Origin: Candidatus Margulisiibacteriota bacterium
GTDB taxonomy: Bacteria > Margulisbacteria > Marinamargulisbacteria > JBFWNS01
Length of the DNA: 64,000 nucleotides
Direction: 5' to 3'
Assembly (NCBI GenBank): GCA_050250935.1
Contig: JBFWNS010000001.1
Location: 130,102-194,101, forward strand
Both the position numbers and the translations under genes were made by a program. The notes under the pieces were generated by a model. The model saw only the letters and a program-made list of their open reading frames with translations. It was not told the DNA's origin and did no database searches. Shown here piece by piece: positions 2,735 through 11,746 of this stretch (position 1 is its first letter; the number at the start of each line of letters is the position of its first letter).

Positions 2735-3682
2735 TCAGAGGTTCAACGAAACAGAAAAATAGTGATTGTTGTCATATTGGATATGATCGCTTTTTTGCAT
2801 GGCATAATCGAAATTAATGCCATTGACTTCCAATCCAATACCCAAAGCAAGTCCACTTTTAACATCGGTAATCACGTTAAACTCGCGGTATCCCCCCGAA
2901 ACTTGGAAAAAGGGAACAAAGGATGGCCGATAGTTCAAGCTTGCGGCCCGTAGCATTTTGTTGCTACCCACTGTCTTTATTTGACCGTGCAATTGGAAAT
3001 CGCCCATGGTATACCTTACCGCATAAATAGCTTGAAGTGGAAGCGTTTCTGATCCCCCATTGTTGTAGTTGACCTTTAAACCGGCTATCACGTTTTTCAG
3101 GGTAATCGACGTATTAAACGCCCCGGTATCCAACACCATCCCTGCATCCATGTTGAAGCCTGACCCTGTGTATTTTTCGATGCTATTGGAGTAATAAACC
3201 CCCGAAACCCCAAAATGCAAGTTCCGGGTTTGAGAAACGGAATAGGACACTTTGGCCACCAAACTGGAGTACCCGAAGGTTTCGCCGGTTTCGGAAATAT
3301 ACCAATCGCCACTGAGGTCCCCAATGACATTGCTCTCTACACCAATGGCCTGGGTCTTTTTGAGATCGCCAACATCGACACTCATCAACCCAAGACCAAT
3401 CACCCCATAGGGCATTCTCATGCTGACGGCCACGTTTTTGAAGTTGGCTTCGTCCATTAATTTAGAGGTAAACGCAGACACCGAAAACCGACGGATGCGG
3501 TACAAAGCCGCTGGATTTTCAAACACACTATTGGCATAGGGGCTAAACCCTTCCACCTGACCCAACCGAATGGCCCGTGCCGAAGACCCGATATCGGTGA
3601 TATCCAAATAGTTTCCACCGGCCACCGCAGGGGTCGCCAGCAAAAACAATCCGAGGATCATGGCCAGGCTTTTTTGAATCAT
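2735..3682 (-). CDS. Outer-membrane beta-barrel-like protein, possibly PorP/SprF-like (T9SS-associated)
   Basis: 315-aa ORF with signal peptide (MIQKSLAMILGLFLLATPAVA), alternating hydrophobic pattern, C-terminal ...FSVSLNL, and an N-terminal FSPY...FENPA motif reminiscent of the PorP/SprF NPA motif. Family assignment is tentative. Confidence 0.5.
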   Translation of the reverse strand: MIQKSLAMILGLFLLATPAVAGGNYLDITDIGSSARAIRLGQVEGFSPYANSVFENPAALYRIRRFSVSAFTSKLMDEANFKNVAVSMRMPYGVIGLGLMSVDVGDLKKTQAIGVESNVIGDLSGDWYISETGETFGYSSLVAKVSYSVSQTRNLHFGVSGVYYSNSIEKYTGSGFNMDAGMVLDTGAFNTSITLKNVIAGLKVNYNNGGSETLPLQAIYAVRYTMGDFQLHGQIKTVGSNKMLRAASLNYRPSFVPFFQVSGGYREFNVITDVKSGLALGIGLEVNGINFDYAMQKSDHIQYDNNHYFSVSLNL

Positions 3683-5691: not shown

Positions 5692-5807
5692 GCGATAAGA
5701 ATCTCCTAAAAATCAGCAATTCGGGGTATTATAGTCGTTCTTGGCGTTACCGACCAGAACACATCGCGACCCCAATATCACCCCAATTGTTACGAATAGG
5801 ACCCCCA

Positions 5808-7934
5808 ATGACTGCTACCCTTAACACCCAACAACAAGAAGCCATTGCCCACAGCGCGGGTCCCCTGCTGATTATTGCAGGCGCAGGCTCTGGCAAAACC
5901 ATGGTACTCACCCATAAAATTCGACATCTGATTCAAACCCAGGGGCTTTCCCCCAATGCCATTTTGGCCATCACCTTTACCAACAAAGCCGCCAAAGAAA
6001 TGAAAGAGCGAGTTCGAACCTTGTTGGGCGAAACCCAGCCCCAACCGTGGATTGCGACCTTTCATGCGTTTTGTGCCGAGGTATTGCGCAAGGAATTTCA
6101 TCATTTGGGGCGATCCCAGTCGTTTGTAATTTTGGACAGTGGGGACCAGCAACGTATTCTCAAAGACATTATTAAAAGCAACAATTTGGACGAAGACCTG
6201 TATTCGGCCGCTGTGGTTTCCGCCCGTATTAGTGGGCTTAAAAACAAGTTGGTGAGCCCCGAGGACTATCGCAACCCCAGTCGCCGGGACTACGATGGCA
6301 AATTGGCCGATGTGTATCAGGCCTATCAGTATCGGTTGCGGCAAAACAACGCCATGGATTTCGACGACCTGATTTTCGGAGTCACCACCCTTTTTGTTAC
6401 CCACCCTGCGGTGTTGGAACATTATCAAAACCGGTTTCGTTCCATTTTGGTGGACGAGTACCAAGACACCAATCATGCCCAATACATTTTGGTTCAATTG
6501 TTGGCCAAGCGTCACCAAAATCTTTGTGTGGTTGGGGATTTTGACCAAAACATTTATTCCTGGCGGGGGGCCAATATTCAAAACATTTTGAATTTTGAAC
6601 AAGACTATCCCACAGCTACCGTGATTCGACTGGAACAAAATTACCGCTCGACCCAAACCATTTTGGACGCCGCAAACGCCGTGATCGAAAACAATACCCA
6701 ACGGCAACCTAAAGTGCTGTGGACCGACAATAATCCCGGAACCCCCATTGTGGTTTATGGGGCCAAAAGCGATTTTGATGAAGCCGAATGGATTACCCAC
6801 ACCATCGAAGACCAATTGAAAACCCACGATGCCAACGATGTGGTGATTTTGTTTCGCACCAACGCCCAAAGCCGGGCTCTGGAAGAACAATTACAACGCA
6901 AAAGCATGGCCTATCGCCTGATTGGTGGGCTTAAATTTTTTGCCCGAGCTGAAATCAAAGATTTTATCGCCTATCTGCGGCTGATTGTGAATCCCCAAGA
7001 CCGCATTGCCTTTGCCCGAGTGGCCAACCGTCCCACCCGAGGTATGGGCGAGGTGACGGTACAAACCCTGTTGATGGCGTCTCAGGACCAGGGATTAACC
7101 TTTCAAGAACTGCTGGCCCAAGGCAACTTACCCCTACGAAACAAGGCCAATATCCAGACCTTTTTGGACTGGGTCGAAACCCAACATCAGCACTTAAAAG
7201 CTGGGGCTTTTGCCAATTTGGGGGATTTGCTCAAACAGATTCTAGACGACACCCAATATGCCACTTGGCTGGGCCAAGATCCCGCCACCAAAGACGAAAA
7301 ATTGGACAACCTCTACGAACTGATCGCCATGGGACACGCCGAAACCGATGCTGAAGCGTTTTTAAATCGCTTGGCTTTGGCCACAGATGGCGACCAAACC
7401 GAGTCGACCCACAGTGCCGTCACGTTAATGACCATTCACCATGCCAAAGGGTTGGAATTTCCCATCGTCTTTGTGTGCGGACTGGAAGAAAAAACCTTCC
7501 CCCATATTCGGTCTTTGCACAACGATTCCGAACTCGAAGAAGAACGCCGTCTCTGTTATGTGGCCCTGACCCGTGCCAAAGAAAAGCTGTTTTTAACCTA
7601 TTCAGGACGACGCCAGGTTTTTGGCGAAGTCAGTTTGCATGAACCCTCTCGGTTTTTGGCCGAAATTCCATCTAGATTGCTCCAAACGGCTGCTCCGAGA
7701 GTGGACCTGTCTGCCGCCAAAGTAAGCTTTTCCTTGGGGAAATTTACCCCTGTTACCCAGCCTGTACAGTCTTTTGATCGGGGTGAAACGGTTTATCACC
7801 GCGACTGGGGCCAGGGCCAGGTGATTCGTACCGAAGGGGAAGGCGAAAAAATGGTGATCCATGTGAATTTTTCGGGGTCGCTTAAAAGCTTAATTGCCAA
7901 ATATGCCCCGTTGACCAAAACCCCAGGAGGTTAG
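5808..7934 (+). CDS. pcrA: ATP-dependent DNA helicase PcrA/UvrD family
   Basis: Walker A AGAGSGKT, UvrD-family helicase motifs along the ORF; start placed at MTATLNTQQQEAI (ATG 5808) by alignment with typical PcrA N-termini. Confidence 0.85.
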   Translation: MTATLNTQQQEAIAHSAGPLLIIAGAGSGKTMVLTHKIRHLIQTQGLSPNAILAITFTNKAAKEMKERVRTLLGETQPQPWIATFHAFCAEVLRKEFHHLGRSQSFVILDSGDQQRILKDIIKSNNLDEDLYSAAVVSARISGLKNKLVSPEDYRNPSRRDYDGKLADVYQAYQYRLRQNNAMDFDDLIFGVTTLFVTHPAVLEHYQNRFRSILVDEYQDTNHAQYILVQLLAKRHQNLCVVGDFDQNIYSWRGANIQNILNFEQDYPTATVIRLEQNYRSTQTILDAANAVIENNTQRQPKVLWTDNNPGTPIVVYGAKSDFDEAEWITHTIEDQLKTHDANDVVILFRTNAQSRALEEQLQRKSMAYRLIGGLKFFARAEIKDFIAYLRLIVNPQDRIAFARVANRPTRGMGEVTVQTLLMASQDQGLTFQELLAQGNLPLRNKANIQTFLDWVETQHQHLKAGAFANLGDLLKQILDDTQYATWLGQDPATKDEKLDNLYELIAMGHAETDAEAFLNRLALATDGDQTESTHSAVTLMTIHHAKGLEFPIVFVCGLEEKTFPHIRSLHNDSELEEERRLCYVALTRAKEKLFLTYSGRRQVFGEVSLHEPSRFLAEIPSRLLQTAAPRVDLSAAKVSFSLGKFTPVTQPVQSFDRGETVYHRDWGQGQVIRTEGEGEKMVIHVNFSGSLKSLIAKYAPLTKTPGG

Positions 7935-7938
7935 TCTG

Positions 7939-8652
7939 ATGATCCGTTTGGGTGTCAATATCGACCACGTGGCCACCTTGCGCCAAGCCCGAAAAGAGGG
8001 AGATCCCGATCTGTGTGCCGCCGCCCGAGATGTCTTGGAGGCCGGTGCCGACAGCATTACGGTTCATTTGCGGGAAGACCGGCGTCACATTCAAGACGAG
8101 GATTTGGCCCAGCTGATGGCCTTTGTGCCCAAATTGAATTTGGAAATGGCTGCCACCGAATCGATGGTTCGGGTGGCTTTGGAAACCCGGCCCTGGGCCT
8201 GTTGTTTGGTTCCCGAAAAACGCGAAGAACTGACCACAGAAGGCGGGTTGGATGTGGCCGGGCATCAGGCCCACCTTGCCGCTGTTGTGGCACGCTTAAA
8301 GGCCAATGGGATTTTTGTCTCGGTGTTTATAGATCCAGATTCTGCTCAACTGGAGGCAGCCCAACAGGTCGGTGCCAACGCCGTTGAACTACACACGGGC
8401 ACCTACGCCCGACTCTCGCAACAAGGCACCCAAGAAACCGAACGGGAACGGCTGGTAAACGCCGCTGAATTGGGACACCAGCTGGGGTTGGCTATTCACG
8501 CAGGGCATGGGCTTAATCGCCGCAATGTGGGGCCTATTGTGCAGCTTCCCCATCTTCAAGAACTCAACATTGGCCATAGCATTGTGTCTCAGGCTCTATT
8601 TGTGGGGCTTCGCCAGGCTGTTAGAGAAATGAAAAGCCTGGTTGTGCTCTGA
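7939..8652 (+). CDS. pdxJ: Pyridoxine 5'-phosphate synthase
   Basis: 237 aa; N-terminus LGVNIDHVATLRQAR typical of PdxJ. Confidence 0.85.
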   Translation: MIRLGVNIDHVATLRQARKEGDPDLCAAARDVLEAGADSITVHLREDRRHIQDEDLAQLMAFVPKLNLEMAATESMVRVALETRPWACCLVPEKREELTTEGGLDVAGHQAHLAAVVARLKANGIFVSVFIDPDSAQLEAAQQVGANAVELHTGTYARLSQQGTQETERERLVNAAELGHQLGLAIHAGHGLNRRNVGPIVQLPHLQELNIGHSIVSQALFVGLRQAVREMKSLVVL

Positions 8653-8677
8653 TTTTGGGTAGGTTATTATTAGCCCG

Positions 8678-8959
8678 ATGTCGATGAATATTCAGCCTAA
8701 ATTTAATGCAGACCCCCTGAATTCCAACCCCAACTTGGCTGAAGCAGGCTCTGTTATTTTGGATGTTAACAACCGTAAAGTGGCCATTCGACGCTCTAAA
8801 ATTAAAGACATCGCAAAAGGGTTGGCCGAAATTGCGTTTTCCATGGGCGAAACCAACGACATGGACACCTACACCGCCATGATGGCCGAAGACATCTTCG
8901 AAGCCCTTCAAAAGGTTCGCAAACGGCAAAAAGAAAAAAAGAAAAAAGGGCATTCTTAA
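8678..8959 (+). CDS. Hypothetical small protein with Lys-rich C-terminus
   Basis: 93-aa ORF in an otherwise empty intergenic gap; no recognisable motif. Confidence 0.35.
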   Translation: MSMNIQPKFNADPLNSNPNLAEAGSVILDVNNRKVAIRRSKIKDIAKGLAEIAFSMGETNDMDTYTAMMAEDIFEALQKVRKRQKEKKKKGHS

Positions 8960-8981: not shown

Positions 8982-11096
8982 TTACCGCAATTGAGCCCTA
9001 ATTCCCTCGAACAAAATCTTCACCACCTCTGGCAGCTGTCCATAGCGGTCTTCGACTTCCCAAATTAAATCGTCCAGTTCGTCTTGTCGGGTTACGCCCA
9101 TCAAGCGCTGATAAATGGCCAACCGTTCGGATTCTGTATCGATGTAGTCGTCGGGGATATAGGTCTGAAGCACGTCTTCCAAATGAAGGGTTGGTTTTTG
9201 AGGCGGTCGTTGGCCTCGCGCTCGATAAACGGCATCTTCCAAAAGCTTACAATACAACTCGAAGCCCACAGCTGTGACATGGCCCGATTGCCGGTGCCCG
9301 AGCATGGTTCCGGCCCCCCTCAATTCGAGGTCTTTGAGGGCCAATTTGTATCCCGATCCCAAGGCCATATAGTCGCGAATGGCTTGGAGGCGCTTGATCC
9401 CTGCCCCGCTGAGGGTTTCTTCGCTGGTGTAAAACAAATGGGCATAGCCTTGTTTTTCGGTTCGTCCCACCCGACCCCGCAATTGGTGGATCTGAGACAA
9501 CCCAAAGTTTTCGGCTTTTTCGATGATGATGGTATTGGCGTTGGGAATGTCCAACCCGTTTTCGATGATGGTACTGCAAAGCAAGACCTGAATCTCGCCT
9601 GCCAGAAACCTTGCCATGGTTTTTTGAAGGGCCCCTTCTGGCATTTGGGCATGGGCCACCTCCAGGGTGACATTCCCCAAAATTTTTTGAAGCGCCGCCG
9701 CCCGTTGGGCGCTGTAGCGAACGTTGTTATAGATGTAAAACACCTGCCCACCCCGAGACAATTCGGTGGCTACAGCCTGATGAACAGCCTCGTCGCTGTA
9801 GGCTTGAACCGCCGTTAAAACCGGTTTTCGCTTCAAGGGCGGGGTACTGATGAGGGACAAATCTCGAGAGCCTGTCAACGACAAATAGAGGGTTCGGGGA
9901 ATGGGGGTTGCACTGACCGACAAAACATCCACCGTGGGATGGGCTTTTTTGAGGGCTTCTTTGTGGGTCACCCCAAAGCGTTGTTCTTCGTCCAAAATTA
10001 AGAGGCCTAAATTTGGAATACTCACATCTTTTTGAAGCAAACGGTGGGTGCCAATGACCACATCCACGCTGTTGCGTTTTAAGCCATCCAAAATGGCTTG
10101 CTGGTCTTTTTTAGACCGAAACCGAGACAACCCCTCAACCCGGATGGGAAAGGGCTCGAATCGCTTTTTAAACAGGGTCAAATGCTGTTCGGCCAACAGG
10201 GTGGTTGGGGCCACGATGGCCACTTGCTTGCCGTTGTCTGCCGCTTTAAAGGCAGCCCGGAGCATAACTTCGGTTTTGCCATAGCCCACTTCACCACAGA
10301 GCAACCGGTCCATGGGACGCTGGGATTCCATATCGGCTTTAATGGCGGCAATGGCCGACAGTTGATCCTGGGTTTCTTTATAGGGAAAGGTGGCCTCTTG
10401 CTCGAGTTGCCAGACGCTGTCTTCTTTGCAGGCAAACCCCACCACCAATTGACGTTGTTTGTACAGCTCGTAAATGTCCGAGGCCAATTCCAAAACGGCT
10501 TTTTGGGCCTTCTTTTTGGTGGTTTTCCAGCTGCCGTCATACAGGCCATTAATCACGGGCTCGGTTTCGGAGTCGCCATAGGGATGCACCCAATTCAACT
10601 GGTCCAAAGGCACAAACAACCGGTCTTCGCCCTTGTATTGAATCCACAAAAAGTCGCCTTCTTTTCCAGCAAAAGCCCGGCGAACCAGTCCTTTATAGCG
10701 CCCCACCCCATAGTGTTCGTGAACCAAAATATCGTCGATTTTGTAGGTCGACAGAACCGAATCGTCCAACACCGCCTCGCCCATGGGTTGGAAATAGGGG
10801 GATTTTTGAACCGTATTCGTGGCCGCAATGGTGGTTTTTTTGAGTTCGGACAAAGACCGTTGTGTTTGAACCAAAAACGAATTGAGCCGCTCGATGGACT
10901 CCCCAAAATAGTCGATGCGAATGGGATTGGTTTGATTCACCGCAAACACGTCGATGATGGAACCACGCACCGAAAACTCACCCGCTTCCAAAACCATGGG
11001 AACCCGGACATAGCCCAGATCCACCAAATTTTTGATTAGGTTTTCGTGACTGGGGTATCGCTTTTTGGTCAGGTCTAGGGTAAGGGTCATTGCCAA
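8982..11096 (-). CDS. mfd: Transcription-repair coupling factor Mfd, short form lacking the N-terminal UvrB-homology region
   Basis: 704 aa; CarD/TRCF RNAP-interaction motif (ILVHEHYGVGRYKGL...FVPLDQL), superfamily-2 helicase with DEEQRFGV, TRCF C-terminal region. Upstream sequence is occupied by the comF-like gene, so no N-terminal extension is possible. Confidence 0.8.
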   Translation of the reverse strand: MAMTLTLDLTKKRYPSHENLIKNLVDLGYVRVPMVLEAGEFSVRGSIIDVFAVNQTNPIRIDYFGESIERLNSFLVQTQRSLSELKKTTIAATNTVQKSPYFQPMGEAVLDDSVLSTYKIDDILVHEHYGVGRYKGLVRRAFAGKEGDFLWIQYKGEDRLFVPLDQLNWVHPYGDSETEPVINGLYDGSWKTTKKKAQKAVLELASDIYELYKQRQLVVGFACKEDSVWQLEQEATFPYKETQDQLSAIAAIKADMESQRPMDRLLCGEVGYGKTEVMLRAAFKAADNGKQVAIVAPTTLLAEQHLTLFKKRFEPFPIRVEGLSRFRSKKDQQAILDGLKRNSVDVVIGTHRLLQKDVSIPNLGLLILDEEQRFGVTHKEALKKAHPTVDVLSVSATPIPRTLYLSLTGSRDLSLISTPPLKRKPVLTAVQAYSDEAVHQAVATELSRGGQVFYIYNNVRYSAQRAAALQKILGNVTLEVAHAQMPEGALQKTMARFLAGEIQVLLCSTIIENGLDIPNANTIIIEKAENFGLSQIHQLRGRVGRTEKQGYAHLFYTSEETLSGAGIKRLQAIRDYMALGSGYKLALKDLELRGAGTMLGHRQSGHVTAVGFELYCKLLEDAVYRARGQRPPQKPTLHLEDVLQTYIPDDYIDTESERLAIYQRLMGVTRQDELDDLIWEVEDRYGQLPEVVKILFEGIRAQLR

Positions 11097-11746
11097 TCCG
11101 GGACATAGGCCAGGGTAAAGCCCACCATGTCGAGGTTTCTGTGGTGTTTGAGGGTTTTGGCCAGTTCGGTCAGGGTGGCCCCCGAGGTTAAAATGTCGTC
11201 TACCACGGCCACGCGCTGGTAAGGGGGAAAGCTGTCTTCCACCCTAAAACAATTCCTCAAAATGGTTTTGCGTTGTTCGGCAGTTTGGGCATGAAGGGGC
11301 GGCGTGTCGACGGTTCGATTCACCGGGGTTGTGTAGTGGGCTTGATGGGTTTCAAAATAGGGCGAAAAGACCAAATCGAGGTGATTATAGCCCCGTTTTC
11401 GAAGCCGATCGGGGTGACTGGGAACAGGAATCCAGGCGTCGATGCCATGGAAGGGCAACACCCCCATGTGTTTTTGAAGGGCGGCCACCAACAGGGGGGC
11501 AGCCTCAGGACACTGTTCAAATTTCAAGGCCCGTATCAGCGATTTAACCGGCCCCTCGTAGGGAAAAAGTCCAATTACAGAGACCATCCCTTCTATGTGG
11601 GTATTAAAATGAGGCTTCGGAACCACCTGTTTTCGACAGGGCTCGCACAAGATTCCCTCTCCCAAACTACCACAATGGCAGCAGACCCTGGGAAAAATAA
11701 GATCGAATAGTTTGACCAACCAGGACTTCATCATGCCCCAAATCAT
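11087..11746 (-). CDS. comF: ComF family protein (zinc-ribbon plus phosphoribosyltransferase domain)
   Basis: 219 aa; N-terminal CxxC...CxxC pairs, C-terminal PRTase motif VAVVDDILTSGATL; stop overlaps mfd start. Confidence 0.7.
   Translation of the reverse strand: MIWGMMKSWLVKLFDLIFPRVCCHCGSLGEGILCEPCRKQVVPKPHFNTHIEGMVSVIGLFPYEGPVKSLIRALKFEQCPEAAPLLVAALQKHMGVLPFHGIDAWIPVPSHPDRLRKRGYNHLDLVFSPYFETHQAHYTTPVNRTVDTPPLHAQTAEQRKTILRNCFRVEDSFPPYQRVAVVDDILTSGATLTELAKTLKHHRNLDMVGFTLAYVPDWQ

Follow-up and report, generated by a model that had tools for sequence, protein, structure and literature searches.

A compact Mfd of Margulisbacteria in which D2 stands directly before the RNA polymerase-interaction domain and the motor

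Work on the coupling factor Mfd has treated it as a complex machine of seven domains and as a target for drugs that would counter the evolution of resistance; which non-motor domains it cannot do without has so far been learned from engineered deletions alone. A natural form of Mfd that is conserved and in which the motor is accompanied by D2 (the sub-domain that contacts UvrA), the RNA polymerase (RNAP)-interaction domain (RID), and a short piece of D7 is encoded on the minus strand of a 64-kb stretch of DNA from a Candidatus Margulisiibacteriota bacterium (64,000 nucleotides of contig JBFWNS010000001.1, called the window below). This compact Mfd has 702 amino acids (aa), corresponding to a mass of ~79 kDa as estimated from the sequence length, and is ~450 aa shorter than the Mfd of E. 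coli, which has 1148 aa. We consider, with moderate confidence, that it is a functional Mfd of a Margulisbacteria lineage which has been shortened by deletions that fall cleanly at the borders of domains and in which the coupling to UvrA through D2 has been kept. In all likelihood, therefore, it still couples repair to transcription and is not a protein that only removes RNAP. We would describe it as an architectural variant of Mfd that is new, and as a candidate minimal coupling factor.

Identity and limits of the gene

The product scores 872 bits against TIGR00580, the NCBIfam equivalog profile for mfd, for which the cut-off is 800 (E=6.1e-262). Its best matches in the PDB are Mfd structures, and it is 43% identical to the E. 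coli protein across E. coli residues 474-1065. Judged by these measures, the window protein is a true Mfd. An identity as RecG was considered and rejected: the score against TIGR00643 is 352 bits for a cut-off of 659, and the N-terminus is made up of D2 and the RID, with no wedge.

The gene and its upstream neighbour are arranged as follows:

8982..11090, minus strand: compact mfd coding sequence, 702 aa plus the stop codon (open reading frame, equivalog profile, match to homologues and to a second assembly)

11087..11746, minus strand: comF-like gene, 219 aa, which sets the N-terminal limit of mfd and whose stop codon overlaps the mfd start

The open reading frame (ORF) 8982..11096 comprises 704 codons when counted from the TTG at 11096, which is the first possible start of mfd, and the likeliest start is the ATG at 11090-11088. 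An earlier note on this DNA, made from its letters alone, had described a compact ORF that is bounded upstream by comF. This description holds, and the ORF is real: the comF-like gene fills 11087-11746, and there is no ATG, GTG or TTG in frame upstream of 11096. The comF-like gene ends in CCG GAT TGG CAA TGA directly at the mfd start, where its TGA shares two bases with the ATG of mfd in an ATGA overlap (11087-11090), which suggests that the two genes are translationally coupled. The upstream protein belongs to the ComF family and has a zinc ribbon and a phosphoribosyltransferase domain, with scores under the curated cut-offs. The adjacency of comF and mfd also occurs in a divergent relative (locus L005, 10001-10017, annotated) and is probable at a second locus (L008, 1128-1132), where an unannotated ORF of 221 aa lies upstream; it is not found in the other relatives.

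From end to end, the 702-aa product has the same sequence as NCBI entry MGE4169216.1, which is labelled there as 'MAG: DEAD/DEAH box helicase [Candidatus Margulisiibacteriota bacterium]', where MAG stands for metagenome-assembled genome. A Logan contig from run SRR27751816, which is an independent assembly, calls the same mfd gene and reproduces the gene order rpe, comF-like, mfd, a 91-aa gene, pdxJ, and uvrD.

Domains kept and domains lost

The compact Mfd was aligned with E. coli Mfd (NC_000913.3), six compact homologues, and four longer ones. Two stretches align: residues 3-93 of the compact protein with E. coli 126-216, and residues 113-702 with E. coli 474-1069. The E. coli domain limits used for the mapping are, with two exceptions, those of Deaconescu et al. 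2006. The exceptions are the limits of the RID (479-545; PMC3001067) and the residues of the relay helix (548-567; PMC7864632). Five Pfam domains were found, namely UvrB_inter (7-91), CarD_TRCF_RID (116-171), DEAD (240-400), Helicase_C (440-544), and TRCF (642-698). The order of parts is thus D2, a linker of ~25 aa, the RID, the relay helix, the first translocation domain (TD1), the second (TD2) and its hook helices, and, last, the three helices that remain of D7. Their positions in the window are listed below, with the support for each; pLDDT is the local confidence score of the structure model described further on.

10812..11084, minus strand: D2, aa 3-93, equivalent to E. coli 126-216 (UvrB_inter, E=1.4e-20; alignment; match to PDB 4DFC)

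10740..10811, minus strand: variable linker from D2 to the RID, aa 94-117 (pLDDT 55-65; 16% pairwise identity)

10542..10739, minus strand: D4/RID, aa 118-183, equivalent to E. coli 479-545 (CarD_TRCF_RID, PF02559, E=5.9e-14; alignment)

10458..10535, minus strand: relay helix, aa 186-211, equivalent to E. coli 548-573 (mapping; helix at 187-215 in the model)

9837..10454, minus strand: TD1/D5, aa 213-418 (DEAD, E=3e-23; Walker A GYGKT with K272, DEEQ at 367-370)

9207..9836, minus strand: TD2/D6 with the TRG motif and the hook helices, aa 419-628 (Helicase_C, E=2e-20; QLRGRVGR; R567, R591 and Q601)

8985..9185, minus strand: truncated D7, aa 636-702, equivalent to E. coli 1003-1069 (TRCF profile positions 4-60 of 95)

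The missing parts are D1a (E. coli 1-125), D1b and D3 (E. coli ~217-470), and the distal part of D7 (E. coli 1070-1148). When the alignment is set against the E. coli limits, these deletions sit within a few residues of domain boundaries. Hence, in the module of UvrB homology (D1a-D2-D1b), D2 alone is found, and the linker at aa 94-117 stands in place of the canonical D1b, D3, and the D3-RID linker. At the other end of the protein, the first ~65 residues of D7 are kept and the C-terminal ~80 are absent, the alignment stopping at E. coli residue 1069 of 1148.

These results modify two claims of the earlier note. The first, that the protein starts in the middle of Mfd, is only partly right: a complete D2 (E. 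coli 126-216) precedes the RID, and it is after D2 that the alignment jumps to E. coli residue 474. The second, that the N-terminal domains which recruit UvrA are lacking, is wrong: D1a, D1b, and D3 are absent, but D2, which is the sub-domain in contact with UvrA and hence the one that counts, is present, confidently predicted, and conserved. The note had also stated that the RNAP-interaction and translocase modules are intact, and indeed the RID, all the motifs of a superfamily 2 (SF2) helicase, and the TRG residues are in place. The loss of the distal part of D7, which the alignment to full-length Mfd revealed together with that of D1a, D1b, and D3, had not been noticed. Neither a frameshifted upstream ORF nor a separate N-terminal fragment that might supply the lost domains was found in the window by tblastn: a search with those stretches of E. 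coli Mfd that are missing here (D1a, D1b, D3 and the distal D7) gave nothing below E=0.1, and a search of the window for such a fragment with whole Mfds of Margulisbacteria and Saganbacteria, and with their first 130 residues, likewise gave no match below E=0.1.

This architecture is an annotation trap, in that the length alone wrongly implies that the repair-coupling part is gone. No Pfam family matches D1a or D1b, and the one for D3 (PF21132) was present in only a few long Mfds among the matches listed, so the compact and the full-length Mfd cannot be told apart by their Pfam architecture.

D2 and its partner residues in D7

In the compact Mfd, D2 shares 41-48% identity with its counterparts in canonical Mfds versus 29% with domain 2 of E. 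coli UvrB, so it derives from Mfd. Residues 8-85 align to residues 11-88 of 4DFC_A (E=2.5e-11), a 93-residue Mfd chain in the PDB that has been described as the core Mfd-UvrA complex. The N-terminus also matches 3FPN_B, an isolated UvrB interaction domain of 106 residues. A fragment of the size of D2 is thus an autonomous UvrA-binding fold, and the first 93 residues of the compact Mfd are essentially the stretch that was crystallised with UvrA in 4DFC.

In E. coli, R165 and R181 are needed for UvrA binding and are also involved in the masking of D2 by D7 (PMC3025350, PMC13453472). The position of R165 corresponds to R42 in the compact Mfd and is occupied by R in 47 and by K in 5 of 52 compact sequences, while that of R181 corresponds to R58 and is R in all 52. 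On the D7 side, E1045, D1048, and R1049 of E. coli contact and mask the UvrA surface of D2 (PMC3025350, PMC13453472). Their counterparts have been retained in the D7 remnant, D681 (for D1048) and R682 (for R1049) in 52/52 compact sequences and E678 (for E1045) in 47/52.

Among the 52 compact homologues, the mean pairwise identity is 51% for the RID and 46% for D2, which is thus about as conserved as the RID, compared with 36% in what remains of D7 and 16% in the linker. Across 80 canonical Mfds, the corresponding figure for D2 is 44%, so the constraint on D2 has not been relaxed in the compact clade. These comparisons, together with the high confidence of D2 in the structure model, indicate that D2 is a working part of the protein, under purifying selection, and not a relic.

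Motor, RID, and predicted structure

The motor motifs GYGKT, DEEQ, SAT, and QLRGRVGR are invariant in the compact clade, as are the TRG residues R567, R591, and Q601. The f-o-f-P motif of the RID, which makes an intermolecular sheet with the beta-1 domain of RNAP (PMC3001067), is LFVP at 158-161, and P161 is invariant.

An AlphaFold model built from 52 sequences has a mean pLDDT of 85 and a pTM of 0.77. The pLDDT is ~90 in D2 and, as listed above, falls to 55-65 in the linker. The model is nearest to apo Mfd (6ac8 and 2eyq, TMq 0.72-0.75) and scores 0.53-0.61 against the RNAP-bound L1/L2 states, these values being global TM-scores. The predicted global fold, therefore, agrees with a closed resting state, although it falls short of proof.

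Distribution of the compact form

A protein search yielded ~50 clusters of 689-717 aa that are 47-56% identical to the compact Mfd and have the same Pfam set, after which the next matches are ordinary Mfds of 965-1,217 aa. Comparison with relatives, thus, bears out the short form, ~50 homologues sharing its length and domain set. All 58 compact-length sequences group as one clade when the core region is used for a neighbour-joining tree. The named sources are mostly Margulisbacteria, and one is labelled only 'bacterium'. Further MAGs with a compact Mfd include those of MFH1428489.1, MFA5927683.1, and NQY73135.1, as well as the Marinamargulisbacteria assembly CAYINU01. Another compact Mfd (MFC1753865.1, 706 aa) was deposited as 'Thermoproteota archaeon', a label that is probably due to a binning or contamination error in the MAG. 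The Mfds of other Margulisbacteria and of Saganbacteria have 979-1,024 aa, with D1a and a shortened D1b/D3.

The layout is rare. A HMMER scan with residues 1-215 against 1.84 billion representative proteins found only 20 representatives whose N-terminus has D2 and the RID in one continuous stretch, of which 8 are full length (702-717 aa) and 12 are contig-end fragments. In all the other matches listed, the similarity lies in two separate stretches, with the RID mostly ~390-600 residues into the protein. Short D2-RID matches of 141-550 aa were considered as stand-alone proteins and rejected; they end arbitrarily inside Mfd, several of them with junk tails, and are contig-end fragments. A scan of GTDB genomes with a D2-RID alignment, a pattern that proved too general, returned one compact locus among the matches listed (L008, from Marinamargulisbacteria) and provides no basis for a taxonomic census.

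The upstream neighbours of the compact mfd differ between contigs: a comF-like gene in the window and in L005, a diaminopimelate dehydrogenase gene in L006, and unrelated genes elsewhere. The short N-terminus is, therefore, independent of the local context. Taking the tree, the searches, and the neighbours together, the compact layout is, on present evidence, a trait of one Margulisbacteria lineage and not an accident.

A possible mechanism

The binding of UvrA, a clamp between D2 and D7, and the displacement of RNAP are predicted for the compact Mfd by analogy with E. coli (PMC7864632, PMC3025350). The RID would anchor the protein on the beta-1 domain of a stalled RNAP. The RecG-like motor would then move on the upstream duplex and push RNAP forward or off, while the relay helix unfolds. 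In the resting state, D2 would be held against the E678/D681/R682 patch of the D7 remnant, and the departure of D7 with the motor would uncover it. Thus freed, D2 would be able, on a linker of about the length of the E. coli D3-RID linker, to offer its R42/R58 surface to UvrA, and excision repair could start. The domains D1a, D1b, and D3, like the distal half of D7, would correspond to scaffolding that has been dispensed with in this lineage.

We put forward more tentatively, and with slightly more doubt than belief, the proposal that the compact Mfd is a naturally minimised yet complete coupling factor, in which a tethered D2 and a three-helix D7 gate suffice and the whole cycle of Mfd can run without D1a, D1b, D3, and the greater part of D7. 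If this proposal were true, the D1-D3 rearrangements in the cryo-EM structures of the E. coli protein would be a lineage-specific elaboration and not a requirement.

Several observations weigh against a retained coupling to UvrA or, more generally, against a direct transfer of the E. coli mechanism. Firstly, the position of F185 in D2 is not conserved, with F in 24 and D in 19 of 52 compact sequences. Secondly, the conservation of R42 and R58 does not separate a role in UvrA binding from a role in the D2-D7 clamp, for which the same residues are used. Thirdly, conserved clamp residues do not guarantee autoinhibition, to judge from the Mfd of T. thermophilus, which has an open clamp, is not autoinhibited, and is constitutively active (PMC13453472). 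Fourthly, tblastn with E. coli UvrA, UvrB, and UvrC found none of the three in the window, and no uvr gene was found within 10 kb of the compact mfd in ~18 related loci (L005-L008, L088, L089 and ~13 compact loci among 80 metagenome loci). The ~7 kb past the left end of the window contain neither uvrA, uvrB, uvrC, nor other repair genes.

The last of these observations concerns the RID. The residue R138 (10677-10679, minus strand) sits at the position of L499 in E. coli and of R341 in T. thermophilus. The substitution L499R abolishes RNAP binding in E. coli, and Westblade et al. found Arg at this position in no groups other than Deinococcus-Thermus and Actinobacteria, where the residue at beta Eco-101 was in every case Q, E or D (PMC3001067). 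In the compact clade, this position is occupied by L (38 sequences), M (5), R (4), K (4), or Q (1). By analogy, R138 predicts a compensating change in RpoB, and the variation at this position predicts that such changes occur within a single phylum. The rpoB gene is not in the window, where no ORF exceeds 967 aa.

Other explanations

The earlier note had raised the possibility that this Mfd acts only in the release of RNAP, its premise being that the UvrA-recruiting part had been lost. With D2 kept, that premise is wrong and the inference loses its basis. The idea can, however, be put in another form, in which the protein is only a release or anti-roadblock factor and D2 is purely an intramolecular plug which, together with the D7 remnant, represses the motor, while UvrA is not recruited. 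We regard this as unlikely, although it is consistent with several findings: the E. coli counterparts of R42 and R58 are, in addition, residues hidden in the interface between D2 and D7 (PMC3025350), F185, which is an exposed UvrA-contact residue, varies in the clade, no uvr genes lie near the compact mfd either in the window or in related loci, and Mfds without the UvrB-homology module but with non-repair roles are known (PMC3488230, PMC13453472). These last Mfds provide an argument on the other side: in organisms that lack UvrABC, the known Mfds have dropped D2 and yet keep D7, which argues that D2 is not needed for regulation alone. Moreover, the D2 of the compact clade is as strongly conserved as that of canonical Mfds, and its sequence aligns with the fragment that suffices to bind UvrA in 4DFC. 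Finally, the window looks like part of an ordinary free-living diderm chromosome with biosynthetic genes, carrying as it does lpxB, ilvD, uvrD/pcrA, and genes for a TonB-dependent receptor, transketolase, and ribonucleotide reductase. UvrABC is normally present in ordinary free-living diderm genomes.

Another possibility is that the compact Mfd is a specialised second paralogue with a derived role, repair being carried out by a full-length Mfd encoded elsewhere in the genome. The existence of Mfds of 979-1024 aa in other MAGs of Margulisbacteria and Saganbacteria and the separate branch of the compact clade would fit with this. However, no further mfd turned up in the window, and no contig examined has both forms. 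Moreover, the NCBI accession numbers of the compact and long forms that were checked are far apart, so these forms come from different MAGs, and the compact protein itself scores above the Mfd equivalog cut-off. A paralogue with a derived role is, on balance, improbable.

It could also be imagined that Mfd is split in this lineage, with D1a, D1b, D3, and the distal D7 supplied by separate genes and assembled in trans. Beyond the fact that the deletions follow domain boundaries, nothing supports this. The tblastn search with the missing pieces finds no candidate in the window below E=0.1, and the neighbours of the compact mfd differ between relatives, none of them having a matching Pfam domain. 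D3 is, in any case, lineage-specific and not conserved (PMC7864632). A split Mfd is, therefore, very improbable.

That the gene is a truncated pseudogene or an artefact of assembly or gene calling, as its length against a norm of 1,100-1,200 aa and its NCBI name of just 'DEAD/DEAH box helicase' might lead one to think, is refuted as far as sequence data allow, and scarcely credible, by ~50 homologues with the same length, start, and end, the agreement of two independent assemblies, the intact catalytic motifs, the confident model, and the purifying selection on D2.

Other features of the window

A gene for a UvrD/PcrA helicase with a C-terminal RNAP-binding Tudor domain (PF21196) lies at 5787-7934 on the plus strand, ~1 kb from mfd and convergent with it, so that two RNAP-associated repair helicases are near neighbours. 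The genes between the two are pdxJ, which is also near mfd in two relatives, and a plus-strand ORF of 93 aa (8678-8959). This ORF has no Pfam match, lies between pdxJ and the mfd stop, and converges with mfd at a distance of 22 bp; in the Logan assembly it is called with 91 aa, and a relative's contig has a 96-aa gene after pdxJ. On the opposite strand, an ORF of 110 aa (8621-8953, minus) was considered as a detached D7 tail. It was rejected, as it has no Pfam match and is an antisense shadow of the plus-strand gene.

Several other long ORFs resemble no Pfam family. Positions 1-2721 of the window (minus strand) are the 5' part of a gene of 2,965 aa without a Pfam family that continues leftward (L088, 10962-19859). 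Four more ORFs on the minus strand are without a Pfam match at E<=1e-5:

2735-3682, minus strand: 315 aa

18158-19039, minus strand: 293 aa

32855-35758, minus strand: 967 aa

39058-41091, minus strand: 677 aa

Comparison with known systems

No description of an Mfd with a D2-only layout, or of excision repair in Margulisbacteria, was found in the searchable literature. The canonical Mfd of E. coli (PDB 2EYQ and 6X26-6X50) shares with the compact one D2, the RID, the relay helix, TD1 and TD2 with the TRG motif, the hook helices, and, of D7, the first three helices, as well as the residues R165 and R181 in D2 and E1045, D1048, and R1049 in D7. Unlike the canonical protein, the compact Mfd starts with D2, which is tethered straight to the RID, and it scores far under the E. 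coli-type Mfd equivalog NF007966 (609 versus 1329). RecG has a homologous SF2 motor with a TRG motif but is without RID, D2, and TRCF domains, all three of which are present in the compact Mfd, the TRCF domain in truncated form.

The Mfds of ~980 aa, such as that of T. thermophilus (6M6A), which has 978 aa (PMC13453472), and those of Saganbacteria and Margulisbacteria (P0055-P0057), are also shorter than E. coli Mfd. However, they keep D1a, a short D1b/D3, and a longer D7, so the compact Mfd is reduced much further. The chains in 4DFC and 3FPN_B are laboratory constructs, whereas in the compact Mfd an isolated D2 occurs naturally, at the N-terminus of a complete motor protein. The compact Mfd separates the predicted UvrA-binding function of D2 from the D1a/D1b scaffold. 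Its small size (79 kDa) makes it a convenient subject for structural and single-molecule work, its relevance being mainly to the mechanism of Mfd.

Natural N-terminal truncations of Mfd have been described in Buchnera, in Wigglesworthia, and in the chloroplast of Arabidopsis, where the whole UvrB-homology module, including D2, is lacking and where UvrABC is absent (PMC3488230, PMC13453472). It is these Mfds that match the idea of a release-only factor put forward in the earlier note. The compact Mfd of Margulisbacteria is also truncated at its N-terminus, but it keeps D2 (UvrB_inter, as listed above). Judged by this domain content, it is a different kind of reduction from that of the Mfds that have lost the module.

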